Both the position numbers and the translations under genes were made by a program. From NCBI GenBank assembly GCA_041675205.1, contig JBAYUF010000002.1, positions 1,731 to 65,730 of the forward strand: 64,000 bases of DNA, in the 5' to 3' direction. The DNA is from Patescibacteria group bacterium. Its GTDB lineage: Bacteria > Patescibacteriota > Patescibacteriia > GWA2-46-9. Positions 3,411 through 38,477 of this stretch are shown here, in pieces. The number at the start of each line of letters is the position of its first letter. Within the stretch, counting starts at the first letter, position 1. Below the pieces are notes generated by a model, which was not told the origin of the DNA, did no database searches, and worked only from the letters and a program-made list of their open reading frames with translations.

Positions 3411-3483
<73 letters not shown>

Positions 3484-3665
3484 AAGTTTCTGAATGATAG
3501 TACAAAGAGTAGATCTACGTAAGTCTTGCCGGTCACAGTCTTCAGACTCGGCAAACCGAAGCTCCATACTTACTATAGTATATACTTGTAAATATAGCAA
3601 TTATTGTTTATAATACTATTTAATATTGACAATTTAACTAATTTATATTATAAAATATATCCGCT

Positions 3666-3685
3666 TGTGTTCCACGTGGAACACA
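3666..3685. promoter_or_regulatory. 20-bp perfect palindrome TGTGTTCCACGTGGAACACA, ~38 bp upstream of the ABC exporter start (candidate operator)
   Basis: Read directly from the sequence. It sits in an AT-rich promoter region between the tRNA and 3723. The core GTTCCACGTG(A/G)AAC recurs at 7458-7472. Confidence 0.45.
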
Positions 3686-3722
3686 GTAACAATGCATGGG
3701 TACTTAACGTCTTACTTACTGT

Positions 3723-6203: not shown

Positions 6204-7358
6204 TTATGTTAACTGGTGGAATAATTCATACCCGGCACTAAAAACAAAAAGCACAACCAGCACACTGGCGGCGATACGGTTCATTGGCAAAAAACGAAAA
6301 CGAGAAATTCCTAATCCGCGAATCTTTTGCAACATGAGAACAATGAAGATGCCATCAATGGCAATCGAGATACCTCCCAAAAATGCGATGAGACTAACAA
6401 AATTGTTTGCGCCAAAAAGAAACGGAACAACCGGTAAGGCTACCGCGAGGAACCAAGAAGCGGTCGGTGAAATTTTAAAATCAAACTCATAGATTTCTTT
6501 GAGGTCGTACCCAAGTGAAAGATACGATTTAAAAACAGCTACGAAACCAAGCGCTGCTCCGAATTGAACGACGGACGGACCAAGCACTGCCACCAAACCA
6601 CTTAGGGCATCAGTAGTAACAGCCCCGCCTGATGCCATTAACACACCCGCAACAAAAATAGCAGTGGTGATTAATGGCAGCACCACACCGGCAACTATGA
6701 GTAACCGTAACCGTCGACAATCATCAACCGTCCCACGAAAAAATTGATACGCGTCTGCGATGACGACGTACCCGGAAAGTGAAAAAAGAAACACCGCAAA
6801 AGCAAACAGTGGATCATTGCCAATCGCAGGGAGTTGAGCAATGTCGCCCCGCACTATGCCCGCTAACCCGATGCCAACAAACGAGGTCATGAGCGGCAGC
6901 GCCAACATGAAATTGATTTCGCTAATTTGTCGGGCACGACCAAGAAGGAGCAAGGCGCCGACAACAAAAAATGTAATTGACCAATACGTTGCTGCACCAC
7001 CAAAAATTTTACTTAGAAATATGCCGCCCAGAAGCACATAGCCAAGCAGCACGCCACTGACGAAGATGACTTCGTTTACTGCGGCTATCCACCCGGGTAC
7101 AGATCCAAGATAACGCCGCACATAACCTGGCAAACGGTGCTGTTCAATTGTGCTCGCCACAACTTCACCATAACTGAGGTGTATTGCCAGCACGGCCGCT
7201 GCCGCCAGCACAGCGAGGAGAGTAGACCATCCTACACCTGAGATAGTCACCGCGTAAGGTACGGCAAAAATACCTGCACCTATAGTAAGACCCGCAATCA
7301 TACCTGCGGCTGAGAAAAATGGAGGAGCAAAAAGTGTTGTGCGCATGTGATTAATCAA
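6204..7358 (-). CDS. amino acid permease (aromatic/hydroxy amino acid transporter-like, HAAAP/APC-fold)
   Basis: 384 aa with ~11 TM helices. The N-terminal GxG(I/L)F.VP motif (GAGIFAVPYAV) is typical of TyrP/Mtr/TnaB-type permeases. Confidence 0.6.
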   Translation of the reverse strand: MINHMRTTLFAPPFFSAAGMIAGLTIGAGIFAVPYAVTISGVGWSTLLAVLAAAAVLAIHLSYGEVVASTIEQHRLPGYVRRYLGSVPGWIAAVNEVIFVSGVLLGYVLLGGIFLSKIFGGAATYWSITFFVVGALLLLGRARQISEINFMLALPLMTSFVGIGLAGIVRGDIAQLPAIGNDPLFAFAVFLFSLSGYVVIADAYQFFRGTVDDCRRLRLLIVAGVVLPLITTAIFVAGVLMASGGAVTTDALSGLVAVLGPSVVQFGAALGFVAVFKSYLSLGYDLKEIYEFDFKISPTASWFLAVALPVVPFLFGANNFVSLIAFLGGISIAIDGIFIVLMLQKIRGLGISRFRFLPMNRIAASVLVVLFVFSAGYELFHQLT

Positions 7359-24950: not shown

Positions 24951-24999
24951 GAAGACCCGTGTGCATTGCAACTGCAGTGCCCGGGTCTTCGTTCTTTTT
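24951..24999 (+). terminator. terminator hairpin GAAGACCCG...CGGGTCTTC plus T-run, preceding repeat A2
   Basis: 9-bp stem with a 22-nt loop, then GTTCTTTTT. Confidence 0.55.
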
Positions 25000-25057
25000 G
25001 AAAAGGTTTTAAAAATAAAAACAATCCCGTTGCACGGGATGTTTTGATTTTTGTTAG
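24994..25057 (+). repeat. island repeat A, copy 2
   Basis: CTTTTTGAAAAGGTTTTAAAAATAAAAACAATCCCGTTGCACGGGATGTTTTGATTTTTGTTAG, near-identical to copies 1 and 3. Confidence 0.8.
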
Positions 25058-25089
25058 TAGAGTACTATCCTTTGGGTAAGGAGGATACC

Positions 25090-25248
25090 GTGAACACCAT
25101 CGAAGACTTGATTGGAATGATCTTTACCGCGGCCGCTGAAGAGGGGTGGCAACCAAATGGGGATACCTTGATGATAGTTGATCCTATCATCTATCGCCTG
25201 AAGCTCGTCGTCAAACCAGATGGCACCATGGTTTGGGAAGACGACTAG
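25090..25248 (+). CDS. hypothetical small protein
   Basis: 52 aa from GTG 25090, 6 nt after AAGGAGG. The track ORF 25051..25248 includes upstream non-coding sequence. Confidence 0.3.
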   Translation: MNTIEDLIGMIFTAAAEEGWQPNGDTLMIVDPIIYRLKLVVKPDGTMVWEDD

Positions 25249-25364
25249 ACCGCCGCCCATGCCCACCACTGAAGTCCGTCGGGCGCACAGCAAAAGATAG
25301 CTGTCGCGCTCGATGGGCTTCTTCATTTTCAAAAGTCAGCCCACCCTTTCAGGTTAGATTTTTT

Positions 25365-25410
25365 TAGCCTCACTCCCGCAGGGATCGTTCACAAAAAAAC
25401 GTGCTTATCC
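25365..25410 (+). repeat. island repeat B, copy 1: TAGCCTCACTCCCGCAGGGATCGTTCACAAAAAAACGTGCTTATCC
   Basis: Direct repeat of 27745..27790. It resembles the forward-strand image of the tRNA-Glu 3' end (TAGCCCCACGGGGAATCGAACC). Confidence 0.6.
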
Positions 25411-25492
25411 ATGTTTTTCATTGCGCAACTTGTCCTCGTGTAAGCATACAGAATCAGAGATTAATCAAATACTCAATTCTCTAATTCCACCC

Positions 25493-26860
25493 CTAAATAA
25501 GTTCAATTGCCACTTGTTTGAAAATATGAACTATGTTGCTGAAATCTTGCTCTGATTCAATCCCTGCAGCTATTCTGACGGTTCTTTTGTCCATACCATA
25601 GTTTGAAAGCCATGTTTTTTCATGCCCAAAACTTGAACCTAAACCAACGCTTTCACCGGCGAGATCTTTAACTCTTTGTATAAACTGCTCTCCGGTAATT
25701 TTTTCTGGCACTGTTACATAAAATAAGGTAACGGCTCCCTCTGGTGCCAATTCCTGCACAAGCTCATTTTGTTTGTGCGTGGGTAAGTTTGGGTGGGAAA
25801 CCTCAAGGCCTGTTATTCCACTTAACGCTTCAGCAAGTTGCAGTGCATTCCGTGCATGATTTTTCATTTTTCCGGCCATCGTTTCTGAAATACTATCTGG
25901 AATTTTTCTTTCATCAGTCGGCTGTAAATATGTTCCTAGTTCGATTCTCCTTGTCTTAATTGCCCTCGTTTTCTCGTCATTATCAGAATATGCAACCCCT
26001 AAGGTTATTTCATTTGCCCCCTCCTGGTAGTGCTTCGTTCCGCTTTCAACAATAACCTTCTCAACATTAAACTTTTTTAGAACTTGTAATGGATTTATTA
26101 ATACTGGTGACGGCAACGTATTGTCAATAATTACAGATAATTTTTCGCGACTATCTCCAGTCACTCGCTTCACCATCCGCTCAAGTTCGCGTACCACTTC
26201 TTCGCGAGCAAGCTCGGTATCCTGCTCAATGCACCTTACGGCTTTACGAAATACAAAAGGATTCTGACCGACTCGGTATTCCTCTATCGAAGCCAAAATG
26301 ATGGCCTGCGTTTCTGCTGATAGCCCAGTAAGATTTTTTCTCTTCTCACAAAACTTGGTCAATATTTTTTCTGACGTTCTATTTTCTTGATAATCCAGAT
26401 TTGTCGTTTGCACAATTTCCCCGACCCCCTCGAGATCGGTTACTTCCATACCTTTAGAATTTGCAACTGTTTCAACCACTATCAGTCGAGGTTTTTCTCT
26501 CTCAACAAGTTCCCGCAAAGCTGCAAGATCGGTGGAGTCAAAAATAACTACCCGTATCCCTAGACCTTCTAACGACTGAATGTCTTTTTTTGTGGTGTCA
26601 TAAATAGCATCAGCACAAAATACTACATCGCCAACCTTCAAACCTTCTGCCGCAATGGCTGAGTGCATCGCAGCTGCTCCAGAATTAAAAAGGGCAACAT
26701 CAGATGCCCCCTCAATCATTTTAGTTAACTCCGCCTCTCTTTCTTGAAGCTCTTTATAATTATAGCGGGCGTAACCAACCTCGTTAATTTCTTCATTAAA
26801 TTGTCCCATGGTCTCGAATTCTGCAGCAATCTTCGGTTGTTTAAACGAACTCTCCGGCAT
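25493..26860 (-). CDS. Cys/Met-metabolism PLP-dependent enzyme family protein (transsulfuration/sulfhydrylase fold) with an ~75-aa internal insertion
   Basis: 455 aa. Family blocks present: SGAAAMHSAI, IVVETVANSKG, SVIIDNT...VESGTKHYQEG (PLP-Lys motif S.TK...GH-like), GESVGLGSS...RIAAGIESEQD. The extra segment lies between the VETxxN block and the IIDNT block. Confidence 0.6.
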   Translation of the reverse strand: MPESSFKQPKIAAEFETMGQFNEEINEVGYARYNYKELQEREAELTKMIEGASDVALFNSGAAAMHSAIAAEGLKVGDVVFCADAIYDTTKKDIQSLEGLGIRVVIFDSTDLAALRELVEREKPRLIVVETVANSKGMEVTDLEGVGEIVQTTNLDYQENRTSEKILTKFCEKRKNLTGLSAETQAIILASIEEYRVGQNPFVFRKAVRCIEQDTELAREEVVRELERMVKRVTGDSREKLSVIIDNTLPSPVLINPLQVLKKFNVEKVIVESGTKHYQEGANEITLGVAYSDNDEKTRAIKTRRIELGTYLQPTDERKIPDSISETMAGKMKNHARNALQLAEALSGITGLEVSHPNLPTHKQNELVQELAPEGAVTLFYVTVPEKITGEQFIQRVKDLAGESVGLGSSFGHEKTWLSNYGMDKRTVRIAAGIESEQDFSNIVHIFKQVAIELI

Positions 26861-26861
26861 A

Positions 26862-27701
26862 CTACTTCGTCAATTTAATAACCGGCATATTCCGAGTAAA
26901 CTCATGCGATGTAAACAACCACTCGATTTTTTTAAAACCGGCGGCTTCAATTTCTTTTTGAATTTCCTCTTTTGTTACGTAACTACGAAACTTTGTACCT
27001 GCAGCCATTGAAATTAGTGGTTGGATGTCCGTATAATCTTCGTCGCTAATTTTCCCCTGCTCATGAATTTTTTTTATGACCTCACGAGCTTTAGGATAAT
27101 CTAGATACCCTTGTTTATCAGCACAATAAATATAAAGAGGAACCTCCAAATAACTGAACAGTCGATACGGTCTACTGGAAACTAACCCCCATTTACTTAC
27201 CACTTCTATCAACTCGCCATTGTTCTCGGGGAATAACACGTTACCTCGACAGAAAAAAACACCGCCAACTTTCAAAGAATCATACATTTTTTGAAACAGT
27301 AGCCGAACCTGATCTCCCCGTATGACGTTGAAAGGACGATGCCCTAATATATAGTCAAAATAATTCTGATAGTTTATCTGAAGCCAGTCTGCTTCAATAA
27401 AATGTTCTTGTTCAAATTTTTCCTCAGCATAGGAAGTCAGCGCATCGAAATTCTCTTTCGCAAAATCAACAACATAAGGATGGGTACCAAGTTTTTTGCA
27501 TAGCGACCTATATTCTATAGTGGAACCAAGTATCATTACGTTGATATCCGACGGTGGTACACCAGAAGCTAGTATTTCTTTCTTTTCTATTTCCAACTCC
27601 TCGTCGTCTGGTCGAGCTGGTATTGGATATTTGTCCCACAGCTCGGCATAGCTCCAGCTCGCCTTTGTTTCATCAATTTCTCTACTTTTTAGCATATACA
27701 C
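26862..27701 (-). CDS. hypothetical protein, possible class-I SAM-dependent methyltransferase fold
   Basis: 279 aa. It appears translationally coupled to the PLP enzyme (stop and start 1 nt apart). VMILGSTIEY...VVDFAKEN...LKVGGVFFC loosely fit MTase motifs I, post-I and III. Confidence 0.35.
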   Translation of the reverse strand: MYMLKSREIDETKASWSYAELWDKYPIPARPDDEELEIEKKEILASGVPPSDINVMILGSTIEYRSLCKKLGTHPYVVDFAKENFDALTSYAEEKFEQEHFIEADWLQINYQNYFDYILGHRPFNVIRGDQVRLLFQKMYDSLKVGGVFFCRGNVLFPENNGELIEVVSKWGLVSSRPYRLFSYLEVPLYIYCADKQGYLDYPKAREVIKKIHEQGKISDEDYTDIQPLISMAAGTKFRSYVTKEEIQKEIEAAGFKKIEWLFTSHEFTRNMPVIKLTK

Positions 27702-27744
27702 TAACTTAATACTTATGACTTAATTATACCTTAGTTCTGACAGT

Positions 27745-27790
27745 GTCCCCACTCCCACAGGAATCGTTCACACGAAAGCGTGCTCACTCC
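27745..27790 (+). repeat. island repeat B, copy 2: GTCCCCACTCCCACAGGAATCGTTCACACGAAAGCGTGCTCACTCC
   Basis: Direct repeat of 25365..25410. Together the two copies bracket the minus-strand two-gene operon. Confidence 0.6.
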
Positions 27791-27930
27791 CTTTGGTCGT
27801 TGTGCTGCTTGTATTTACGGGGCGAATCTCACCACGGTTCAATTTCTCAGAATGGGAGGAAGAAATAAAAGCCCCTAATAGGGCCATATTAATAGGTTTA
27901 CAAAGAACGGTTTAGGAGTTTACAAAAGAG

Positions 27931-27978
27931 GAGAGACCCGCACCATATCACTGGTGTTCCGGGTCTCTTCTTCTTTTT
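27931..27978 (+). terminator. terminator hairpin GAGAGACCCG...CGGGTCTCTTC plus T-run, preceding repeat A3
   Basis: 10-bp stem, then TTCTTTTT. Confidence 0.55.
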
Positions 27979-28036
27979 GAAAAGGTTTTGGAAACAAAAA
28001 CAATCCCGTTGGACGGGATGTTTTGATTTTTAGCCC
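27973..28036 (+). repeat. island repeat A, copy 3
   Basis: CTTTTTGAAAAGGTTTTGGAAACAAAAACAATCCCGTTGGACGGGATGTTTTGATTTTTAGCCC, followed directly by repeat C1. Confidence 0.8.
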
Positions 28037-28105
28037 AAGTGGGTGCGCATTGGAACTCTATTGTTTTGGAGCTGAGAGAATGGTTGAGGTTTGGGGAGGA
28101 GATGA
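28031..28105 (+). repeat. island repeat C, copy 1 (TAGCCCAAGTGGGTGCGCATTGGAACTCTATTGTTTTGGAGCTGAGAGAATGGTTGAGGTTTGGGGAGGAGATG...)
   Basis: ~90% identical to 29503..29578. The track ORF 28023..28259 is probably a translation of this repeat. Confidence 0.7.
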
Positions 28106-28270
28106 AAGCCTTAGATTTTCAAAAGGAAGTGGTGCAAATTGGTACTCCGTAGCGGGAGTGGAACTAGGTCCTGTAAGGTGGAAAACTTTCTTGGCTTTAG
28201 TAAGGGAAGTATATTTTTCAATTACTGAAATTCCGCAATTATATAACCATGCCCCTTAAAACAGAATTAG

Positions 28271-28981
28271 CTATCCTACTAATATTCCAACAATCAAACC
28301 AACCACAAGCGCTACTCCACCAATCACTAACATTTTTAGCCCTGACTTTATTAATGGTTGTTTAGTGGACTTAGTAGCCGCTGCTCCTAAACCAAATAGT
28401 CCAATCAATGTTAAAACTATAGAGACTGGTATGGCTTGCTTGATCGGTAAAAACAAATATGAAAATAGTGGCAACATTCCACCTATGATATAAGAACCAA
28501 ACATGTAAAACCCGCCTTTGAGTGAAATAGAAGGACGGGAAGGAAATACTTCCAGTTCCCTTAGAGCCATTTCTTTCAACATGAGTTCAGGGTTTTGCGA
28601 AGCCGCCTCTGACATCTCCACTGCCAATTTTTCCGGCCAGCCGTCTTTAGCATACATCTCCCTTAATTCTTCTTTTTCTTCTATTGGATAATTTGTAATT
28701 TCGCTTTTCTCCTCTGCTAATTTCCTGGCAGAAACCTCTTCTTCAGACTGGTTGGATAAATACGAACCTATGCCCATAGAAACAGATTCAACAGCAATAA
28801 TAACTAACCCTGCTAGCAGTACCGTAGAATGGTTTCCACTACCTACCGCAATACCGGTGACAGAACCTAAAGTAGACACCATACCATCTTCCATCCCAAA
28901 GACAATTTCCTTGATTACATTCTCAAGTTGTGAAGTTTGATGTTGAATTTTATATGTTTTTTGTAAATCCATAAAAGTCAA
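28271..28981 (-). CDS. VIT1/CCC1-family (DUF125) iron/manganese transporter
   Basis: 236 aa. EIVFGMEDGMVSTLGSVTGIAVG is the VIT-family signature. There is a cytoplasmic Glu-rich loop and C-terminal TM helices. Confidence 0.8.
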   Translation of the reverse strand: MTFMDLQKTYKIQHQTSQLENVIKEIVFGMEDGMVSTLGSVTGIAVGSGNHSTVLLAGLVIIAVESVSMGIGSYLSNQSEEEVSARKLAEEKSEITNYPIEEKEELREMYAKDGWPEKLAVEMSEAASQNPELMLKEMALRELEVFPSRPSISLKGGFYMFGSYIIGGMLPLFSYLFLPIKQAIPVSIVLTLIGLFGLGAAATKSTKQPLIKSGLKMLVIGGVALVVGLIVGILVG

Positions 28982-29217
28982 AAACGAAGCGGATTTTTTT
29001 TCTTAAGTACTCAATAACAAATAAAAACTTAACTATTTTAATTATGCGCTTATTTACAAATTGTTTCCACAGAATAATTTGTTATCCCGCCTTTGGCGCG
29101 ATCTGCGACCGAGGGAATTTGCAACCGGGAACCCCAGTAGAAGTCCTCAGATGCATTCGGACTCTACGGGGCGCGGTCGGACCCGAGTCCAGCTTCTTGC
29201 ATCCGATAGTATAACCA

Positions 29218-29262
29218 AAAGAAAAAACCTGGCGCACAGCCAGATTTTTTCTTTTAGCCCCA
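29218..29262. terminator. hairpin AAAAAACCTGGCGCACAGCCAGATTTTTT followed by TTTTAGCCCCA
   Basis: Stem CTGGC/GCCAG flanked by A- and T-runs. The following TAGCCCCA matches the tRNA-Glu 3'-end image 8 of 8. Confidence 0.5.
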
Positions 29263-29502
29263 TCCTTCGTCGCTAAGCTTCTCAGGACAAGCGGGGAATT
29301 CCGACGCCCTTCGTCGCCAGCAGTGCGACTCAGTGCTCTGTCCTGGGCAGCGCTTGATGCTTCGCCTGCTCACATCCATCGGCGCTCGCGGTATTCGTGA
29401 TTTCTTCCGAAATCACTCAGCGCTCGCTGCTGCCCGTTCGATTCCCACGCGGGGAAGCACATACCAAAAAAGCACCCCTCACAAGGAGAGATGCTTTTTT
29501 GG

Positions 29503-29578
29503 TAGCCCTAGTGGGTGCGCATTGGAACTCTATTGTTCTGGAGCTTAGAGAATGGTTGCGGTTTGGGGAAGATATGGA
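29503..29578 (+). repeat. island repeat C, copy 2 (TAGCCCTAGTGGGTGCGCATTGGAACTCTATTGTTCTGGAGCTTAGAGAATGGTTGCGGTTTGGGGAAGATATGG...)
   Basis: Direct repeat of 28031..28105. It is preceded by TGG, so the junction reads TGGTAGCCC, the same 9-mer that opens the forward image of the tRNA-Glu CCA end (TGGTAGCCCC at 38306-38315). Confidence 0.7.
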
Positions 29579-29641
29579 AAAGGATGCTTTGGCCAAGGAA
29601 ATGACCTTGGCGGCATAGTCCCTCATGGGAGTAGAACACCA

Positions 29642-30505
29642 CTATTCAGCAGGTGGAGCACTAGGTGATATATCTACCTCTTTATCGGACAGTGCTTTTT
29701 CGAATACACCGATAGCTTCATAAACGGCATCTAGCGTAACTATTTTTGACAGGCCTAGATGGCCTTCCACTAACTCAAGTATTTTATTCTCGGTCATAGC
29801 CGCTTCACTGTGCTTTGTTTGCCAGTAATAATGTGTGGCTATACCTATTAGGTAGGCACGATTTATTGATTTTGTCCCTTGGATAGAAACAACTTGTGGT
29901 TTGCAAAAAACTGGTCCGCCGCTATTACCCGGGAAAACTGGGGCATCAAGGTATAAGATTGAGTTTTTGGCAAGCTCGGGGTCTCGTCTCGCTATAATGC
30001 CCGATCTACAGATAGCGTAGTTTTTGTTTTCACCGCGCATTCCAAGTGGAAATCCAAGAAAAAAAATTTCATCACCAACAGATAAGCCCACCTCATCAAA
30101 TTGCTCAGGACGGAGTCCTGTTTCAGTGTCGAGGATACTGACAAAATCAATTTCATTTTCTTCAAGAGTTTCTTTGTCGAGTGGAATTACAGCAACATCT
30201 TTACCTGATTCAGGACAAAAAAAGCTCCTTAGACCTGGTGCGCGATGAGTCGGAATGGAAAATTTCTGTGCAATCGCTTCGCCGTTTTTATCAAATCTTA
30301 GGTACAATTTTTCAAACCCATCACGCTCAATATCAATTAGAACATGCGCGGCCGTTACTAAGAATAATTGACCAGAATAACGTTCGCCCTCTTTATTATA
30401 TACTCTGAATAATAAAAATCCCGTGCCGCGGCATTTCGCCTCTTGGCCCTCGATAACTTCAATTGAAACGACTGATTTCAAAAAGGCTGGTGGAAGCAAG
30501 GCCAT
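29642..30505 (-). CDS. trypsin-like (S1/chymotrypsin fold) serine protease
   Basis: 287 aa. The catalytic triad context is LVTAAHVLID (His), DVAVIPLD (Asp) and FPGNSGGPVF (Ser). No signal peptide is obvious. Confidence 0.75.
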   Translation of the reverse strand: MALLPPAFLKSVVSIEVIEGQEAKCRGTGFLLFRVYNKEGERYSGQLFLVTAAHVLIDIERDGFEKLYLRFDKNGEAIAQKFSIPTHRAPGLRSFFCPESGKDVAVIPLDKETLEENEIDFVSILDTETGLRPEQFDEVGLSVGDEIFFLGFPLGMRGENKNYAICRSGIIARRDPELAKNSILYLDAPVFPGNSGGPVFCKPQVVSIQGTKSINRAYLIGIATHYYWQTKHSEAAMTENKILELVEGHLGLSKIVTLDAVYEAIGVFEKALSDKEVDISPSAPPAE

Positions 30506-30638
30506 ATCAAATTCTATCGTTTTATTAGTGTAGGGCTAACTCAAGAGACCAAACAACATCTTTCCAACTATAAAAACCACAATCAAACCCACTCAATTAG
30601 CTTGTCTTTAGAAGTAACAAAAGGCACAGAACATTCTA

Positions 30639-31232
30639 CTAGCCAAAAGGAGGAAGTACTACTCTGTTTTCAATTTTTTTCACCCACTGATCAGCCAGCA
30701 TTTTTATCCTAAGTACCTCTTGATTCAAGACAGCTAAATCAAAGTCTTCGTTTACAAAAGTGAAGTGCATCGTTCTAGGGTCATAGTGACTAACAAAAAC
30801 TATATTATTTATTTGAAACGCTAATCGGGAACCAATATTATATGTCCCGATATTAGTATCGGGACCATATTTGCCAATCCAGCCCTTTAGCCGCTCATCA
30901 TAATGTTCCAGATGATTACGGAATTTTCGTTTATGGATTAGAGATTTTTTATCGACTCCCAACACTACTCCAATTGAGAAGACATCCTTCTGGACAAAAA
31001 AACGATGCCACCACCTTGAAAGGATATTGTTCCGTTGTTCTGTTGCTTTCAGCATTTTTGAAACCATTGCACAGTGGGACAAAAAGGAATGAATGGCAAT
31101 AAAAATTATGTCATTACTAGCCTGGTGCGGCTTTTGCAAATACGAATACATGATCCCCGCAAATTTTGCTTGTGTTGAAATCTCCCTTATAGACATCTCT
31201 ATCCAAAGATCTTTGGAAGTTTTTTTTATCAT
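30639..31232 (-). CDS. hypothetical protein (defence-cassette member)
   Basis: 197 aa, co-directional and tightly spaced with the neighbouring genes. No family recognised. Confidence 0.4.
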   Translation of the reverse strand: MIKKTSKDLWIEMSIREISTQAKFAGIMYSYLQKPHQASNDIIFIAIHSFLSHCAMVSKMLKATEQRNNILSRWWHRFFVQKDVFSIGVVLGVDKKSLIHKRKFRNHLEHYDERLKGWIGKYGPDTNIGTYNIGSRLAFQINNIVFVSHYDPRTMHFTFVNEDFDLAVLNQEVLRIKMLADQWVKKIENRVVLPPFG

Positions 31233-31241
31233 ACCAAAATA

Positions 31242-32039
31242 TCACCGTAACATTTTTTGATTTATATAGTGCAATAAAGAACGCGCACTATTTATAACAA
31301 GCATAGCTTCCGCCTCTGCGAGCAAGCTATTGTTGGGGTGAGCGAGACTGGATTGATTGCGAAACGTATTCATTGCATCAAGTATTGATGCGAAAGATTT
31401 CAAAACTCGATCCACGTCATGTGATCGTGTAACTTCAGAAGTAAAAGCTGGATGCTTTGTTCTCAATATTTTGAAAAATTCCGTAATACTCTTGTTATCC
31501 GTTTCCGCTACTCCCATTTCTTCACATAAATTTTTCATGTAGCCATGCAATGCTGTGTGGGCCCTATCCATGGCGCTGATCGGACCATTTGTGGCCAAGA
31601 GATTCTCGGCATCAAGCAGTGCACGATCAACAACAGCCGTCGTATTATGAGGTTTTGGTGTTGAAACTGGTGCAGGAACATCAACTAATTCTGGATAAAT
31701 ACAAATAAAACGAATAAAAGGCCCCCCGACCTCACTTATACAATAAGCAACATGCATGAAAGCCTCCTCATCTTGCTGGGTTGTTTTCAGGGCACCCATT
31801 TCTTCATAATCATCCAGTGGTACCGTTGCATGCAAAACATAAAAGTCATCGCCAAAATAATTAGAACCTTCACTTATCGAAAACGGTATCAAGGATAACA
31901 ATTCTGCTGCACGAGACTGTCCTCGACGAAGCAACAAGCGGGCAGCATTCGTGGCGATACGTTGCCATCGTTCCTCGGGCATAGGTTCACCGACAAGTTC
32001 AAATCCAGATGCACCACTGCCTTGGTATAAAAGTATCAT
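31242..32039 (-). CDS. hypothetical protein with a C-terminal Abi_C-like (abortive-infection C-terminal) motif
   Basis: 265 aa. The C-terminal ...FRNQSSLAHPNNSLLAEAEAMLVINSARSLLHYI resembles the conserved R-N-x3-AH(G/P) core of the Abi_C domain. Low certainty. Confidence 0.35.
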   Translation of the reverse strand: MILLYQGSGASGFELVGEPMPEERWQRIATNAARLLLRRGQSRAAELLSLIPFSISEGSNYFGDDFYVLHATVPLDDYEEMGALKTTQQDEEAFMHVAYCISEVGGPFIRFICIYPELVDVPAPVSTPKPHNTTAVVDRALLDAENLLATNGPISAMDRAHTALHGYMKNLCEEMGVAETDNKSITEFFKILRTKHPAFTSEVTRSHDVDRVLKSFASILDAMNTFRNQSSLAHPNNSLLAEAEAMLVINSARSLLHYINQKMLR

Positions 32040-32064
32040 CGCAGTTTATGTGCAAAAGAATTTT

Positions 32065-33282
32065 CTACTCACTAATAGCAGAAAGTATCCGTTGGCGCTT
32101 GATAAATCTATCCAGTAACGGGATACCGAGGCGATACTTACCATACCGAGTTCGGTAAATAAGGCCGTCAATAACGAGCTTTGCAAATATTTGACTTGCG
32201 TGGCTTGAACTAATAGGGCTCTGGAGCAGCCTTCCCCATTGCTCAACTACCTCCTTTACTGTGAATTCATCTTGGCAGTTGTCTAATGTAGACATAACAG
32301 ACAGTAATTCTCGTTCCCTGTCGGTGGCGTTATTCCAGCGCGCTGCAAAGAAGTCTATATCAAGCTTGGCTATTATTTCTTCAAGGGGAACGCTCGGATC
32401 ATTCCTTCCTTGTGTCATCTGGCTCAAAAAACTATTGAATGCTTCCCGACAAAGAAACTGAATGAAATAAGGATAACCACCCGACTCTTTCACAATTATT
32501 CCTACTGACGTATCGCCAAATGTTACGGGACAGTTTTCCCTTTGTATCGGTTTTAGAACCGCTTCTCTGCTCTCTGTGTCAGAGAGACCATGAAGCTCTG
32601 TCACCTCAAACATGCGCTCCGCGTAAGTCCTCGCATCAACCAAACGCTGCTGAAGCGTTGGAAGACCAACGAGAACAAGTAGTAAGGGATAACCTCTTTT
32701 TTGTAACGATTGAAAAACCTCTAAAAGTACTGACAACGGATACTGTCCTTCTTTCCCTTGATCACTCATTTTTTGTGCCTCATCGTAAGCGATTACTATT
32801 CCTTTTACTTGAGGGCTAGCTTTTTTTACATTATTCCAAACAAATTCGAGTGTACTTCGAAGTTTGTCTGACACCAGCCCTGGCTGACCATTGTAATATT
32901 CAAGCAATGCAGCGTAGTCTAGGGAAACTTCGTCTGTTTCCCCGCCAAAACCCATCTTGTCCTTTTGTCCCTTGAGTTGCGATGTAATAATCGAGAGGTC
33001 AGTCAATATTCTTGTAGCAATGGTGTTTTCTGAAACACTAGCCGACTCAGAAAGATCGGTACCTGCCCAAAGCCACTGATTCACAAGAGCGACGGGTTTG
33101 AAGCTATCGACGAGAACGGTCTTGCCCGTACCACGTAGGCCAGTCAGAATCATGTTTTTCATAATGACCTCCTGCTGGAGCAAGTTTATGAATGCTTGTT
33201 TTTCAGGGTCACGACCAGCCAAGTAAGGAGGCGGTTGACCAGCGCCGGGGCGGAAGGGGTTCAGAAAAGGTTCCTGTGTCAT
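32065..33282 (-). CDS. P-loop NTPase, AAA/Arch_ATPase (DUF234-type) family
   Basis: Walker A ILTGLRGTGKTVL and Walker B IVIAYDEAQ. The N-terminal FLNPFRPGAGQPPPYLAGRDPE and a C-terminal winged-helix-like tail are typical of ORC/Cdc6-like standalone ATPases. The start was chosen at MTQEPF (33282). The track ORF runs to 33342. Confidence 0.6.
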   Translation of the reverse strand: MTQEPFLNPFRPGAGQPPPYLAGRDPEKQAFINLLQQEVIMKNMILTGLRGTGKTVLVDSFKPVALVNQWLWAGTDLSESASVSENTIATRILTDLSIITSQLKGQKDKMGFGGETDEVSLDYAALLEYYNGQPGLVSDKLRSTLEFVWNNVKKASPQVKGIVIAYDEAQKMSDQGKEGQYPLSVLLEVFQSLQKRGYPLLLVLVGLPTLQQRLVDARTYAERMFEVTELHGLSDTESREAVLKPIQRENCPVTFGDTSVGIIVKESGGYPYFIQFLCREAFNSFLSQMTQGRNDPSVPLEEIIAKLDIDFFAARWNNATDRERELLSVMSTLDNCQDEFTVKEVVEQWGRLLQSPISSSHASQIFAKLVIDGLIYRTRYGKYRLGIPLLDRFIKRQRILSAISE

Positions 33283-33603
33283 AGAATGAGTAACTTTTAT
33301 AATATTACTAATTCTAGATGTTTCACTAATTCTTGTCAACAAACTAAATGTTTGTAGAACTTATACTTGGCCAATTTTATAGAAATAGGCCATAATGATT
33401 GCGACAATTGAATTGCCTAAACCACTGGGTAACCAGCGGCATGGCAAGAAATCCCACAACGATACTGAACCCCGTGTTCAGCGACTCGTTGTGGGTCATA
33501 TCCCGAAAGGGGTATGGGGCAGAAAGGCTCAGCTGGCGCGGGGCTCTGTGTTGCACCCCAAGCGCCTTGCTACCTACAAGTCGCTTATTTTTATTTTATT
33601 CAC

Positions 33604-34374
33604 ATGGACAACCAATCAACTTCGGGAAGTATCAAAAAACCCTTTTGGCAGCAGTTATGGTTTCTCGTGCCTATGGCTGTTTTGTTACTCATTATCGTTA
33701 GTGCAGCGAACTCTTTGGAAAAAACGAGTGATCAATATTCAGGACCAGTGCAAGCGATGGTTTTTGATTTACCTCCACTCATAGGCAAAACAATAGATGA
33801 AGTTGTAACTGCACTCGGAGAACCAACAGCAGAGGAGGAACCAACAGCAGAGCAAAAGAAGGTTGGGTATACAGAAGGCACAGTAAGCTACGAACACGAG
33901 GGTATCACGCTAATGGTCAACTTTGATGTGCTTACTCGAAAAGTAAATGATTTCTATGTCAGCCCGCCCGGTATAGAGCCGGTGCAAAACATTACGGCTC
34001 TCTTGCAAGCAGCTAATCTCAGAGAAGAAACAACTGATTCATATGTGGTGAGTAGTGTTTCAGCCGGAGACAAAAAAGATGCTGGCTACTCTGGTATTGT
34101 CGTCATTACGAAAGAAGATGCGGAGCGCAAAAATACTATTCAGAAACAGTTTAGCGCGTGGGATGGTTCCCACATCAAACTTACTCGAGTCATCAAAGAT
34201 TCGATGCATGATCCTGATAGCTATGAACACGTAAAAACAACATACGTGGATAAAAGTGACCACCTCATCGTCACCACAACGTTCCGAGGCACGAATGCTT
34301 TTGGTGGCAAAATCTCCAATACTGTAAGCGCTAAGGTCTCCGTCCAGGGAGACGTTATCGAAATACTTGAGTAG
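33604..34374 (+). CDS. hypothetical membrane-anchored protein
   Basis: Start at ATG 33604. N-terminal TM FWQQLWFLVPMAVLLLIIV, then a soluble domain. Unknown family. Confidence 0.45.
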   Translation: MDNQSTSGSIKKPFWQQLWFLVPMAVLLLIIVSAANSLEKTSDQYSGPVQAMVFDLPPLIGKTIDEVVTALGEPTAEEEPTAEQKKVGYTEGTVSYEHEGITLMVNFDVLTRKVNDFYVSPPGIEPVQNITALLQAANLREETTDSYVVSSVSAGDKKDAGYSGIVVITKEDAERKNTIQKQFSAWDGSHIKLTRVIKDSMHDPDSYEHVKTTYVDKSDHLIVTTTFRGTNAFGGKISNTVSAKVSVQGDVIEILE

Positions 34375-34409
34375 TAGGCGTATACTGTGGGGTATAACCT
34401 AAGAAATCT

Positions 34410-34631
34410 ATGGGCTACATACTAAAGCAGTACTTGATCACTTTCGGCTGGGCACTTACCGGCGCTATTTCTATGGCGTTTGCGCTCGGCATTCTCGCCA
34501 AAGTCTTTTCTTGGCTTACCCCGATAGATGAGTGGGAGGAACTCAAAAAAGGGAATTACGCTGTAGCTATCGTATTTGGGGCAACTATTCTTGGTGCAGC
34601 CTTTGTTATTGCACACATCGTTACAGGCTAA
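34410..34631 (+). CDS. DUF350-family small membrane protein
   Basis: 73 aa with two TM helices. LKKGNYAVAIVFGATILG is typical of DUF350. Confidence 0.5.
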   Translation: MGYILKQYLITFGWALTGAISMAFALGILAKVFSWLTPIDEWEELKKGNYAVAIVFGATILGAAFVIAHIVTG

Positions 34632-34633
34632 AA

Positions 34634-35008
34634 ATGAAGCGTAGAGCAGCTATTGCAACCGTCCTGGTCATAATGGCACCGACGCTTGCTTGGGCACACC
34701 CAGGACGCACTGATGCCAACGGGTGCCATACCAACAAGAAAACGAGCGAGTATCACTGCCACGGGGCTCCAGCAACAACATCTGCACGTACGGATGCGCC
34801 AGTTGCCGCTCGAGAAACCGCGCGAGCTACGTCGCCAAGCGTTGAACCAAGCGCTGCCGTTTGTAATTTTGACCTCTATAACTGCAGTGATTTTGCTAGT
34901 GGAGAAAAGGCGCAAGCAACCTTTTTAGTCTGCGGAGGAATAAATAAAGACATTCATCAATTAGACAAAGACAATGACGGCCTTGCTTGCGAAGAACTGA
35001 GCAACTAA
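34634..35008 (+). CDS. secreted Excalibur calcium-binding domain protein
   Basis: Signal peptide MKRRAAIATVLVIMAPTLAWA. The C-terminal DKDNDGLACE is the Excalibur DxDxDGxxCE motif. Cys-rich. Confidence 0.7.
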   Translation: MKRRAAIATVLVIMAPTLAWAHPGRTDANGCHTNKKTSEYHCHGAPATTSARTDAPVAARETARATSPSVEPSAAVCNFDLYNCSDFASGEKAQATFLVCGGINKDIHQLDKDNDGLACEELSN

Positions 35009-35066
35009 AGAACTAGGAATTACGTAATCTTTTTGTGCGAATGTCAAGTAAAAACCGGACACAACC

Positions 35067-35164
35067 GGACAGTATCTGACACTTTTACAACATTTTGACT
35101 CCATATCCGACAGTACCCGACACTATTAGGATATTCTGATTAGAAATTAGACAGTAATAGACAC
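35067..35164 (+). promoter_or_regulatory. three phased iteron-like direct repeats RGACAGTA-N2-3-GACAC (35067, 35108, 35148), ~40 bp apart, upstream of 35187
   Basis: GGACAGTATCTGACAC, CGACAGTACCCGACAC and AGACAGTAATAGACAC. There are additional CCGGACA half-sites at 35055 and 35065. Confidence 0.5.
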
Positions 35165-35186
35165 AATTACCGGGAATTGCCGAATT

Positions 35187-36368
35187 GTGACGCCCAAACT
35201 TCTAAGTCAAACAAGAACAATGGTAAAAGGTGACGCCGCTAAATCATTAGAGAATCTACCTTACTTCGAAGATTACGAAGTCTATGCTCTTTGGAAGTAT
35301 CTCAACGGAAACCTAACGGGTCGACCGGTTTTTCAATTAGTCGACTTATTGGGACCAGGAAACAGTTACCTATCACTGTACGTACTACTACACAACCTAA
35401 ACCAGTGGGGCATAACACTTGAAAATCCAACTTTTGATCGTAAGGGGCATAGATGGTTTTATAAAAAACATCGCACCAAAAAAGAGAGCGAGGCGAAAAA
35501 CTCGCTGAATAACATCTACAAAAATAAGTTCAACTTGGTTGACATAGTGGCCGCGTTTCCTGTTGCTCAGCAACAACGTATGCTCGCTTGGATAGAGTTC
35601 AAAAAAGAGCTGAGCGACAGCAACCGTCAAATCTTGAACTCATTCTTAGGGCGCTATATGGATCTGTTTGTACACGATCAACTAAAGTTGCGGGAAAAAA
35701 GCTTCTACACTTTTGAGCGGCAGATAGAGAAGCTTCTAATGCTACTTCGTGAACGATCTAAAGATTTTGGCAAAGAATTTGTTTTTGAGTACGCACCTCC
35801 AAGAGACGAAGATGGTCTTTCTATCTACTCTCCTTTTCTATTTACTCATTCCATGGTCGCGGCATCGACACTCGGCCTGGTGAAAGTGACGGAAGCCTGG
35901 GTACAAGATGAAGCACCGCCTAAAAGGCAGCGCCACAGCTATAAAATTAGACTTACTATTACTGAAGTAGGCAGTGAGAAGATAAATGAACTAGCTGAGA
36001 AGGTGGTTGGCAAAAGGACTATTATGAAAAACAGCGACGGACTATTTACATATCGAGGGGCACCGCTAAACGTAACCCTTGGTACTAATTATGCACGCGC
36101 TTTTGATATTCTTCTGTCGGACTTCCCTCAGGGAGGTTTTGTTCCTTATGACGTTCTAGAAAATCTATTGATACAAAACGGTTTTGAGCCGAGCAAGAAC
36201 AACGAACAACGCAACAAGAGAATCAATAACTTGCTTAGTGTAGACCAGGGGTTTTTCCGATATGCAAAGTTGAACAACAAAAAGCTTCCTAACAGTGCAG
36301 CGGATGGTAAGTCTATTATCCATATACGCCGAGGAAAGGGTATAGAATTTTACAACCCAGAGATCTAA
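35187..36368 (+). CDS. hypothetical protein (possible replication-initiator/DNA-binding protein served by the upstream iterons)
   Basis: 393 aa with no recognisable catalytic motif. Its position directly downstream of the iterons and upstream of the recombinase suggests a Rep-like role. This is inference. Confidence 0.3.
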   Translation: MTPKLLSQTRTMVKGDAAKSLENLPYFEDYEVYALWKYLNGNLTGRPVFQLVDLLGPGNSYLSLYVLLHNLNQWGITLENPTFDRKGHRWFYKKHRTKKESEAKNSLNNIYKNKFNLVDIVAAFPVAQQQRMLAWIEFKKELSDSNRQILNSFLGRYMDLFVHDQLKLREKSFYTFERQIEKLLMLLRERSKDFGKEFVFEYAPPRDEDGLSIYSPFLFTHSMVAASTLGLVKVTEAWVQDEAPPKRQRHSYKIRLTITEVGSEKINELAEKVVGKRTIMKNSDGLFTYRGAPLNVTLGTNYARAFDILLSDFPQGGFVPYDVLENLLIQNGFEPSKNNEQRNKRINNLLSVDQGFFRYAKLNNKKLPNSAADGKSIIHIRRGKGIEFYNPEI

Positions 36369-36396
36369 AACCATTCCACTTGGTTCCGACTGGGGA

Positions 36397-36424
36397 CAGC
36401 TCAAAACTGAGCTGTTTTTTTATT
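36397..36424 (+). terminator. rho-independent terminator CAGCUCA-aaacu-UGAGCUG-UUUUUUUAUUU
   Basis: 7-bp stem plus a long U-run, 29 bp after the stop. Confidence 0.65.
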
Positions 36425-36819
36425 TGTTTACTTGGTTTTTGAAGACAAAAAAGAAACTGAAAACTAAACCAAGTGGAAGTATTACAAGGTAGGGTAAGGA
36501 TAGGCTTGCAATAACTTTTTTCAGGAAATTTATTGCAACCAGGTGACGTCACACTTATTCAGCCGCTGGCGCGTCACCTCGCTGGCGGCTGATGTGTTTT
36601 GAGATGCTTACTCTAGAACAATGCCGAAAAATTGATCCCTCTCTTGCTGATATAACAGACGAAGAGTTGTTACGCATTAGGGAAAAACTACAAGCTGTTG
36701 CGCTGCTTGCGTTTGAGGATTTTGTAAAAGAAAACGGACTAAAATCAGGACCATAATAAGAGTTTGAAATATCCCGCTTGGGTACTCACTAATTCTTATT
36801 TTCAGGGTAATGTATAAAT

Positions 36820-38346
36820 ATGAGCATGAATACAGTAAAAACTGGGATAATTTACGTTAGAGTTTCCTCTAAAGATCAGGTTGAAAACACGAGTCTAGAA
36901 TCGCAAGAAAAAGCCTGTATAGAATACGCTGAACGAAACGCCATTACGATTATTGAGCCAGCGTTCGTCGAGAAAGGTGAGTCTGCAAAAAGCGCCAACC
37001 GAACTGAATTCCAAAAGGCTATTTCACGATGCGCTGATAAGAAACTACCAATCAAGTACTTCGTTGTTTATAAACTTGATCGTTTCGCTCGAAACCAAGA
37101 TGATCATGTCACTGTAAGAGCCATTCTCAGACGCTACGGTACTGAACTTCGTTCTGTTACGGAACCAATCGACGAAAGTTCACTGGGGCGAGCCATGGAA
37201 GGAATGATTTCTGTTTTTGCAGAGCTAGATAACAATATGCGAACCGAACGGACTAGGGGCGGGATGCTAGCTCGAATACGACAGGGTATTTGGTGTTGGC
37301 AAGCTCCGCTGGGCTACTACCGCCCATACAAGAAAGCTAACATTACGCCTGATGAAAAAATAGCACTCTACATAAGGATCTTGTTCGAAGAATACGCTAA
37401 AGGAACATACACTTACGAGAGGTTGGCAAGATTTATTAGTGATCGCGGATTACGAACAAAGGAGGGTAAGAAACCTTGGCCACAGCTCATGGTAAAAATT
37501 TTGAAAAACGAAGTTTACTGTGGAGTAATAGTCGGACTCGGAGAGAGAATCGATGGTGCATTTGAACCGATTGTTTCAAGAGAGCTTTTTGAACAATGCA
37601 GAAAAATAAGACTTGGCATTGCAAATGGCTGTCGTCGTTCACCAGAAAACCCTCTGTTCCCACTACGACGGATTGTGGTTTGTACCAAATGCAAGCAACC
37701 ACTCACCGGCAGCAGATCTCGGGGGAAACTCGGGAAATACTACCATTACTATCATCATCGTAAACAAGGTTGCGTGGCCGCAAAAAGTATCCCCAATATC
37801 GAACTAGAAAAGATTTTTCTGAATTATTTTCAAAGGATCGCACCCAATGATCGTTTTGAAAAGTTATTCAAAGCCATCATTACTGATACTTGGAAGAGTA
37901 GTTATAAAAAGCTAGACGAAAATAATTCTCGGATTCAAAAACAGATAGAAGTATTGGCTACTGATCGTCAACGTATTTTTGAGTTCCACCAGAATGGTAA
38001 ATACTCCGATGAAGAATTTCAAGAACAGAAACGGCTTATAAACCAACGCATCGAACAAAAGAGGATACTACTAGATGACAGCCGGATTGAAGAATTCGAT
38101 ATGGAGCTAGCCCTCAATTATTGTTTTGAGTATTTGAGAGCCATTCCAGAGAAATGGGGAAAAACTAGCGATGTATCTAGAAAAATGCGCTTACGGGGTT
38201 TGATGGTCAAAGGATTTATATATTTCGACGGCGAACGAATTGAAACCCTCGATATGACAGAGATTCACAGGGTAAAACAAGAGTACGGTGGTGAAAAATA
38301 CCATTTGGTAGCCCCACGGGGAATCGAACCCCGATTTCCGCCGTGA
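36820..38346 (+). CDS. large serine recombinase (phage-integrase/resolvase-type serine recombinase)
   Basis: 508 aa. The N-terminal resolvase catalytic domain is IYVRVSSKDQ...(catalytic Ser)...VYKLDRFARN. Then comes a recombinase domain, a zinc-ribbon (CTKCKQP...C) and a coiled-coil. The last 41 nt overlap the tRNA-Glu gene on the opposite strand. Confidence 0.85.
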   Translation: MSMNTVKTGIIYVRVSSKDQVENTSLESQEKACIEYAERNAITIIEPAFVEKGESAKSANRTEFQKAISRCADKKLPIKYFVVYKLDRFARNQDDHVTVRAILRRYGTELRSVTEPIDESSLGRAMEGMISVFAELDNNMRTERTRGGMLARIRQGIWCWQAPLGYYRPYKKANITPDEKIALYIRILFEEYAKGTYTYERLARFISDRGLRTKEGKKPWPQLMVKILKNEVYCGVIVGLGERIDGAFEPIVSRELFEQCRKIRLGIANGCRRSPENPLFPLRRIVVCTKCKQPLTGSRSRGKLGKYYHYYHHRKQGCVAAKSIPNIELEKIFLNYFQRIAPNDRFEKLFKAIITDTWKSSYKKLDENNSRIQKQIEVLATDRQRIFEFHQNGKYSDEEFQEQKRLINQRIEQKRILLDDSRIEEFDMELALNYCFEYLRAIPEKWGKTSDVSRKMRLRGLMVKGFIYFDGERIETLDMTEIHRVKQEYGGEKYHLVAPRGIEPRFPP

Positions 38347-38380
38347 AAGGGCAGCGTCCTAACCGTTAGACGATGAGGCC
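38306..38380 (-). tRNA. tRNA-Glu (anticodon TTC), CCA encoded
   Basis: The reverse complement is GGCCTCATCGTCTAACGGTTAGGACGCTGCCCTTTCACGGCGGAAATCGGGGTTCGATTCCCCGTGGGGCTACCA. It folds as a cloverleaf (acceptor stem with two G:U pairs), with anticodon loop CUUUCAC and TpsiC loop TTCGATT. Confidence 0.8.
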
Positions 38381-38477
38381 TCAATTACCTGAAAGATCTG
38401 TGAGAAACGCTCACTTCGCTTCCGCGGTATGTGGTGCGACGATAGTACATTCATTTCTGTTTTGAATCAAATTTTTG

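Follow-up and report, generated by a model that had tools for sequence, protein, structure and literature searches.

A four-gene cluster in a low-GC island of a Patescibacteria genome: probable accretion of separately acquired genes rather than a conserved defence system

The 64,000-nucleotide stretch of Patescibacteria group bacterium DNA analysed here (assembly GCA_041675205.1, contig JBAYUF010000002.1, positions 1,731 to 65,730; hereafter the window) carries, between positions 29642 and 33282, a compact run of four genes that an initial annotation had proposed as an anti-phage cassette. The list of open reading frames (ORFs) agrees on four co-directional minus-strand genes at this place, which encode, read along that strand, a 405-residue ATPase counted from its ATG (P1; 32065–33282), a 265-residue Abi_C protein (P2; 31242–32039), a 197-residue protein (P3; 30639–31232) and a 287-residue protease (P4; 29642–30505). 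The spacing is as small as first described, although the intergenic gaps measure 25, 9 and 133 bp rather than 26, 10 and 134 bp. Public gene calls begin P3 at Met13 (185 residues); the upstream positions D8, W10 and E12 are conserved in the P3 family alignment, indicating that the 197-residue start is correct and that the gap between the Abi_C gene and P3 is therefore 9 bp and not 45 bp. Three assemblies, each from a separate sample, show the identical four-gene arrangement, so it is no assembly artefact; these assemblies represent a single Patescibacteria organism and thus provide no evolutionary replication.

Signals at both ends of the cluster agree with the flanks first described, a repeat on one side and a divergent promoter on the other. 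A promoter-like site on the minus strand (TTGACA-17-TAGAAT, 11/12 consensus match; 33311–33339) lies ∼30 nt 5′ of the ATPase start. On the far side, 3′ of the protease gene, are one copy of a 77-nt direct repeat (29503–29579, plus strand) and a terminator-like hairpin with T-run on the minus strand (29475–29488; a consensus match only), the repeat being placed between the protease stop codon and the hairpin. A weaker promoter-like site falls inside the 133-bp gap before the protease gene. Promoter- and terminator-like sites in the region are consensus matches only, and since their number is not above shuffled expectation they would fit one or two transcription units without proving anything. 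Given the 25- and 9-bp gaps and the single promoter-like and terminator-like sites at the ends, transcription of the four genes together, in one or two units, is probable here.

The proposed setting within a tRNA-linked island was borne out. The region from 25.0 to 38.4 kb (25000–38400), which holds the four genes, has 42.5% GC as compared to 49.4% elsewhere in the window, and extends as far as the gene for a large serine recombinase (36820–38346, plus strand), which overlaps a gene for tRNA-Glu (38306–38380, minus strand). The recombinase is a 508-residue protein with Resolvase, Recombinase, and Zn_ribbon_recom domains. Its ORF reaches at the 3′ end 41 nt into the oppositely oriented tRNA-Glu, and its last residues are encoded by the 3′ half of the tRNA, an overlap suggestive of integration at this tRNA, although an att repeat was not found; a 9-nt match to the tRNA 3′ end (TGGTAGCCC, at 29500) may be chance. 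No island backbone shared with other loci was found.

To examine whether the four families travel together, profile hidden Markov models (HMMs) of all four were run against every ORF of 267 loci outside the organism’s own three assemblies. The ATPase served as anchor for 80 loci from reference genomes and Abi_C for 80 from metagenomes; further loci came from viral contigs carrying the ATPase (22 loci), the protease (61) or Abi_C (3), from six distinct P3 contexts, and from the nearest available relatives of all four proteins. Among the 267 loci there was no case of adjacency between any two of the four families. The 80 ATPase-anchored genome loci contained no Abi_C, no P3 and one distant protease-like ORF; this sole double match (L086) pairs a 31%-identical ATPase with a 544-residue protease-like ORF that lies at a distance of 5 kb and on the opposite strand. 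In the 80 Abi_C-anchored metagenome loci the remaining three families were all missing, the viral loci contained no second family and the six P3 contexts no other family, and the closest relatives of each of the four proteins were likewise without the partner families. Adjacency of ATPase and Abi_C, or of Abi_C and P3, thus has a frequency below ∼4–5% among relatives (0/74 and 0/∼60 informative loci), and clustering of the genes around the ATPase and the Abi_C anchors gave neighbour clusters covering at most 8 loci out of 80. The idea of a conserved four-gene cassette did not withstand this comparison: the initial annotation had itself named a lack of conserved synteny elsewhere as the result that would speak against it, and no such synteny was found. 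A 183-residue gene near the closest Abi_C relative was considered as a P3 relative and rejected for want of an HMM match. That the four families are core phage genes was also rejected; deposited phages gave one weak ATPase match and no protease match, and P3 was absent from the viral contigs and plasmids searched.

As judged from its structural model, P1 is a standalone AAA+ ATPase of Orc1/Cdc6-like (Arch_ATPase) type, whose C-terminal part is helical/winged-helix. The Walker A (GLRGTGKTVL, residue 48) and Walker B (IAYDEAQ, residue 164) motifs are present as first noted and are invariant across the family alignment. In a Pfam search the AAA_16 score was 28.5 bits, under the gathering cut-off of 32.6, and neither ATPase_2 nor DUF234 was matched; some homologues have precomputed PF13191 or PF01637 matches. 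The AlphaFold2 (AF2) model, with a predicted local distance difference test score (pLDDT) of 84, had as top Foldseek matches 2fna (SSO1545; E = 7.6e-11), 2qby (Orc1/Cdc6; E = 2.7e-10) and 2qen (PAB2304; E = 2.2e-9), with template-modelling scores of 0.45–0.63 and similarity over the full length. Of the earlier assignment to an Arch_ATPase/DUF234 type, the Arch_ATPase/Orc1-Cdc6 likeness is supported by structure, and for DUF234 there was no match. P1 has in common with SSO1545, PAB2304, and Orc1/Cdc6 the fold, the length, the AAA+ core, the lid and the C-terminal helical/winged-helix part. In contrast to these proteins, it is only 13–16% identical in sequence, has no replication-origin context, and belongs to a patchily distributed bacterial family found also in prophage-like contigs (phrog_6841, matched at E = 1e-50).

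This family is very large, with >7400 homologues at ∼50–55% identity across >20 phyla. Reference genomes with a member number at least 577; 100 plasmids (∼30% identity) and 22 IMG/VR contigs carry one as well, and everywhere it is a solo gene with no conserved neighbour. Immediate neighbours elsewhere are mostly metabolic genes, with nearly no PADLOC matches. Of 74 loci, 49% have a co-directional gene downstream of the ATPase and 16% have one within 40 bp; this is coupling at chance level, and a conserved sensor with interchangeable downstream effectors was ruled out accordingly. The closest relatives, as in the window, lie on mobile-looking DNA: one at 66% identity adjoins PLD and a different serine recombinase, and one at 65% identity is inside a RecA/DnaB/NinG phage-like region. 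A common mobile-element backbone of ATPase and serine recombinase was likewise ruled out, the recombinases being 25% identical and no other island gene recurring. By its sequence distribution, the family appears as a widespread, horizontally spread, standalone gene.

P2 passes the Pfam Abi_C model (PF14355) with 49.5 bits against a gathering cut-off of 24 over residues 190–259, which upholds the resemblance first noticed; the motif itself, RNQSSLAHPN at residue 227, has the spacing RN-x4-AHPN and not x3 as then written. R227, N228 and H234 are invariant in 20 aligned relatives. Catalytic HEPN domains are defined by Rx4–6H with a polar residue after the arginine (Anantharaman et al. 2013, PMC3710099), and because the invariant R227-N228…H234 fits this pattern (Rx6H, with asparagine after the arginine), P2 carries the HEPN signature. 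The PADLOC AbiJ model aligned at E = 4e-7 (28 bits) with profile positions 147–273 of 281, i.e., with the C-terminal HEPN part only, so that P2 resembles lactococcal AbiJ in its C-terminal ∼125 residues only and full-length similarity was not found with this model. Abi_C homologues of 370–420 residues and 153 plasmid genes of the “abortive infection family” have in common only the C-terminal half (∼residues 114–263), which is the AbiJ-type plan of a variable N-terminal domain followed by HEPN. P2 is accordingly classified, from its sequence, as an AbiJ-clade HEPN protein with a family-specific N-terminal domain and a C-terminal HEPN domain, the plan described for AbiJ/Abi_C proteins. It differs in that the N-terminal domain matches none of the Pfam AbiJ-NTD models, and the ∼263-residue subfamily to which it belongs is a predicted abortive infection family only.

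The neighbourhoods of Abi_C relatives, which like those of AbiJ/Abi_C proteins include restriction-modification (RM) genes and other HEPN genes, contain type I methyltransferases (MTases), Ymh/PD-Lambda-3_B-type HEPN, Abi_C and TIR genes; the closest relatives (49% and 51% identity) are in RM/toxin–antitoxin islands. Abi_C is the only one of the four families with clear defence-island neighbours, and a defence-type role for P2 is plausible. In the closest relative a second AbiJ-like Abi_C gene follows after 11 bp. One clade of five loci (e.g., L144, L145, L146, L151) has, ∼40 bp downstream of the Abi_C gene, a gene for a 266-residue HEPN protein of Ymh type, with a full-length match to PADLOC PD-Lambda-3_B (E = 1e-144); in L145 the two genes occupy 3462–4235 and 4280–5077. 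A PD-Lambda-3_A-type nuclease is not evident near these pairs, and the clade may represent an undescribed two-HEPN pair. The Abi_C relative was rejected as the PD-Lambda-3 A component, since its only match is a weak one to AbiJ and since PD-Lambda-3, by its description, combines a PD-(D/E)XK nuclease with HEPN.

The third protein had been described as lacking a recognisable family, in agreement with Pfam, where no match was found for P3 and none was consistent across 39 family members; PDB and PADLOC likewise gave no match. Its family (∼183 residues; 239 homologues at 50–63% identity) has no Pfam domain in any member. The alignment reveals invariant FRNxLEHYD and IHSFLSH blocks and two motifs, E12-x3-R16 and R105-N106-x3-H110, in which R105, N106 and H110 are invariant, with conservation of 90% or more at E12 and R16. 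HEPN criteria in the literature call for Rx4–6H with a polar residue after the arginine and an upstream Ex3[KR] (PMC3710099); with R105-N106-H110 and the upstream E12-x3-R16 conserved, P3 has both signature motifs. The AF2 model of P3 (pLDDT 88) gave non-specific results in both fold searches. Homology to Abi_C was rejected, as hhalign of P3 against the Abi_C alignment was without signal (probability 0.2%), and an HD-type hydrolase was rejected with a single match (2ogi, E = 0.26) as its support. Judged from motifs only, P3 is probably a second metal-independent HEPN-like RNase unrelated to P2.

Relatives of P3 lie near genes for N6_N4 MTases, MutH, Mrr, NYN, PD-(D/E)XK and Schlafen-type proteins, the relative at 63% identity adjoining an MTase+MutH pair. 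In four of the six contexts a co-directional upstream gene lies within 42 bp, of a different family each time. Genes found immediately upstream of P3 relatives include those for a 568-residue protein with a DGQHR motif (DndB/ParB-like; L269, 3277–4983) and a 336-residue DUF234/PD-(D/E)XK_11-like protein (L004, 2193–3203); both are nuclease-type and reminiscent of PD-(D/E)XK + HEPN systems. The “DUF234” neighbour of P3 relatives in Parcubacteria was considered as a member of the window’s ATPase class and rejected, being DUF234/PD-(D/E)XK_11-like and without similarity to the ATPase profile. In a further locus (L002), a 153-residue gene just downstream of the P3 relative (6693–7154) contains RNDFAH and has weak sub-threshold matches to HEPN_Cthe2314 and HEPN_Apea (E ∼0.004–0.01), a possible further HEPN–HEPN neighbourhood. 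That P3 founds an undescribed family of HEPN-like RNases, known to date from metagenome-assembled genomes alone (Patescibacteria in many cases) and serving as downstream effector of tight two-gene modules with an interchangeable upstream partner (AbiJ-type HEPN here; PD-(D/E)XK-like, DGQHR-like and small proteins elsewhere), is a rather improbable proposal as a whole. If true, it would make the Abi_C–P3 pair of the window a new two-HEPN defence module.

The description of the fourth protein as a trypsin-fold protease was confirmed by Trypsin_2 (46.4 bits against a gathering cut-off of 27.6) and by an intact triad of His54, Asp103 and Ser195, invariant in 40 aligned sequences, with GNSGGP at residue 193. 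Against the PADLOC PDC-S45 profile P4 scored 73 bits (E = 4.6e-21; profile positions 20–250 of 293), which is a raw profile score to which PADLOC’s own cut-offs were not applied; phrog_7688 was matched at E = 2.5e-19. The family consists of standalone proteins of ∼280 residues (1905 representative homologues), and the closest relative, at 53% identity, has none of the partner families nearby. P4 is, by sequence, a standalone chymotrypsin-fold serine protease of PDC-S45 type, like PDC-S45 in being a single-gene, trypsin-fold protein of similar length that can be aligned over ∼230 of 293 profile positions. The match is moderate, and PDC-S45 is itself a candidate: the 145 PDC systems, defined by “guilt by embedding,” are predictions yet to be tested (Payne et al. 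2024 preprint, 10.1101/2024.01.29.577857). A defence-type role matching the candidate PDC-S45 is plausible for the protease.

We consider it likely that the four genes are not a co-evolved multi-gene system but independently acquired, individually mobile single-gene modules that have gathered as cargo in a low-GC island, itself gained by horizontal transfer, which adjoins tRNA-Glu and a large serine recombinase. Because each family occurs without the others in all other loci examined, the locus is read as a cluster of an ordinary and known kind, made up of defence-type genes that were acquired separately, rather than as a four-gene system. Like defence islands elsewhere, this one is atypical in composition, adjoins a tRNA gene and a recombinase, and holds unrelated single defence-type genes, whose relatives are found in other variable regions. 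It differs in that a match to a defence or candidate-defence model exists for Abi_C and the PDC-S45-like protease but for neither of the other two genes, and the ATPase family is not defence-associated elsewhere.

Each of the four genes would, on this reading, work on its own. P1 would act as a standalone ATP-dependent protein, probably DNA-binding, with no sign of coupling to the other three. P2, as an AbiJ-clade HEPN RNase, would sense an infection cue through its N-terminal domain; by analogy with HEPN abortive infection proteins (Anantharaman et al. 2013), the cue would free the HEPN Rx6H active site, leading to RNA cleavage and growth arrest. P3 would be a second and unrelated RNase of the metal-independent, HEPN-like kind that its motifs point to, and P4 a cytoplasmic serine protease of PDC-S45 type with an intact triad, a candidate single-gene defence effector.

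Several points weigh against independent acquisition or qualify it. The tight spacing and common strand give the cluster an operon-like look. The samples of P3 contexts (six distinct) and of full-length protease contexts (approximately eight) are small, and the ATPase and Abi_C relatives sampled are mostly 40–55% identical and from other phyla; a lineage-specific functional association may be compatible with such comparative data. The HEPN status of P3 is a matter of motifs, with non-specific fold searches. The label “defence module” is unsupported for the ATPase, whose neighbours elsewhere are mostly metabolic, and for all four genes an anti-phage role is only a candidate one.

The alternative that survives best, although an unlikely one, is that the Abi_C–P3 pair with its 9-bp gap is a functional unit of two HEPN-type proteins (e.g., a hetero-oligomeric RNase, or an effector with its regulator), the ATPase and protease being bystanders. 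Such a unit would be a variant of the theme of a HEPN gene with a tightly coupled partner, of which the Abi_C clade with its downstream Ymh-type HEPN (five loci; PD-Lambda-3_B at E = 1e-144) and the closest Abi_C relative, with a second AbiJ-like gene across an 11-bp gap, are further examples. PD-Lambda-3 itself is listed as a PD-(D/E)XK + HEPN system, and the tight two-gene layout with a downstream HEPN is similar here, a likeness of architecture only; a PD-Lambda-3_B-like HEPN directly follows Abi_C relatives in the clade just named, whereas P3 matches neither PD-Lambda-3_B nor any other PADLOC model, and the window is without a PD-Lambda-3_A-type nuclease. The presence of both HEPN motifs in P3, and the close co-directional genes (≤42 bp) upstream of its relatives in four of six contexts, including the DUF234/PD-(D/E)XK-like one, would also suit a pair. 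However, a P3 relative is beside none of the 60 Abi_C relatives with downstream sequence, an Abi_C relative is in none of the six P3 contexts, and only ∼8 of those 60 have any HEPN-type gene downstream. Short gaps are weak evidence of coupling because Patescibacteria genomes are gene-dense, and P3 is a putative HEPN protein whose fold searches were non-specific.

Less likely still, and in our view very improbable, is a recent lineage-specific defence operon of all four genes, with the ATPase as sensor or switch and the two RNases and the protease as effectors. ATPase-plus-effector designs are common among known defence systems. The co-directional layout with its short gaps, the strong promoter-like site upstream and the terminator-like site downstream, and the recurrence of the arrangement in three samples would all be expected of an operon, but the three samples yield one organism without evolutionary replication, and a promoter-like site lies in the 133-bp gap before the protease. 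The families never co-occur in the other loci examined, and ATPase relatives are neither coupled to the downstream gene nor found in defence contexts. The least probable explanation, with very little in its favour overall, is that the genes are not anti-phage at all and that the HEPN proteins are addiction (toxin-like) modules stabilising the integrated element, with ATPase and protease in its maintenance or regulation: HEPN domains are known as toxins of toxin–antitoxin systems, the island carries a serine recombinase, and ATPase relatives occur on recombinase- or phage-type elements (the closest), on 100 plasmids and in 22 IMG/VR contigs, yet no conserved antitoxin-like small partner lies beside Abi_C or P3 relatives, different loci have no island backbone in common, most ATPase relatives are among ordinary chromosomal genes, and deposited phage genomes are essentially without the ATPase and the protease.

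Accretion of single genes thus remains the preferred reading, and its main value is negative: what looks like a tidy four-gene “system” in a candidate-phyla-radiation genome consists of separately mobile genes that are neighbours by chance, and for that reason should not be listed among new multi-gene defence systems. By-products are a conserved, unannotated P3 family with HEPN signature motifs and without a Pfam, PDB or PADLOC counterpart, a very large Orc1/Cdc6-like ATPase family that behaves as a standalone, horizontally spread gene, and a further example of defence-type cargo in reduced Patescibacteria genomes. Residual interest attaches to P3, which may be a new HEPN-like family, and to a possible Abi_C–P3 pair.

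Other features of the island lie outside the four genes. The repeat copy next to the protease gene (29503–29579) is 91% identical to 28031–28107, with a 28-nt core that occurs exactly twice as compared to 0 expected by chance; a second pair of direct repeats (24971–25052 and 27950–28031) is 83% identical. All copies are placed with a minus-strand stop codon (of the PLP enzyme, VIT1 or protease gene) on one side and a terminator-like hairpin on the other, so that the repeats are of a 3′-untranslated-region or terminator-associated type. Just 3′ of the protease gene, the ORF-free, GC-rich stretch 29040–29500 contains bidirectional terminator-like hairpins and folds much better than shuffled controls (z = −5.4 on the plus and −5.3 on the minus strand); no Rfam family matches it at E ≤ 1, and it may be an unannotated structured RNA. 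At the other end of the cluster, the divergent intergenic region holds a LOOT RNA (Rfam RF03000; 33414–33530, plus strand; 88 bits against a gathering cut-off of 46.4), ∼130 nt 5′ of the ATPase start and on the opposite strand, directly 5′ of an ORF for a membrane-anchored protein with a probable start at 33605.

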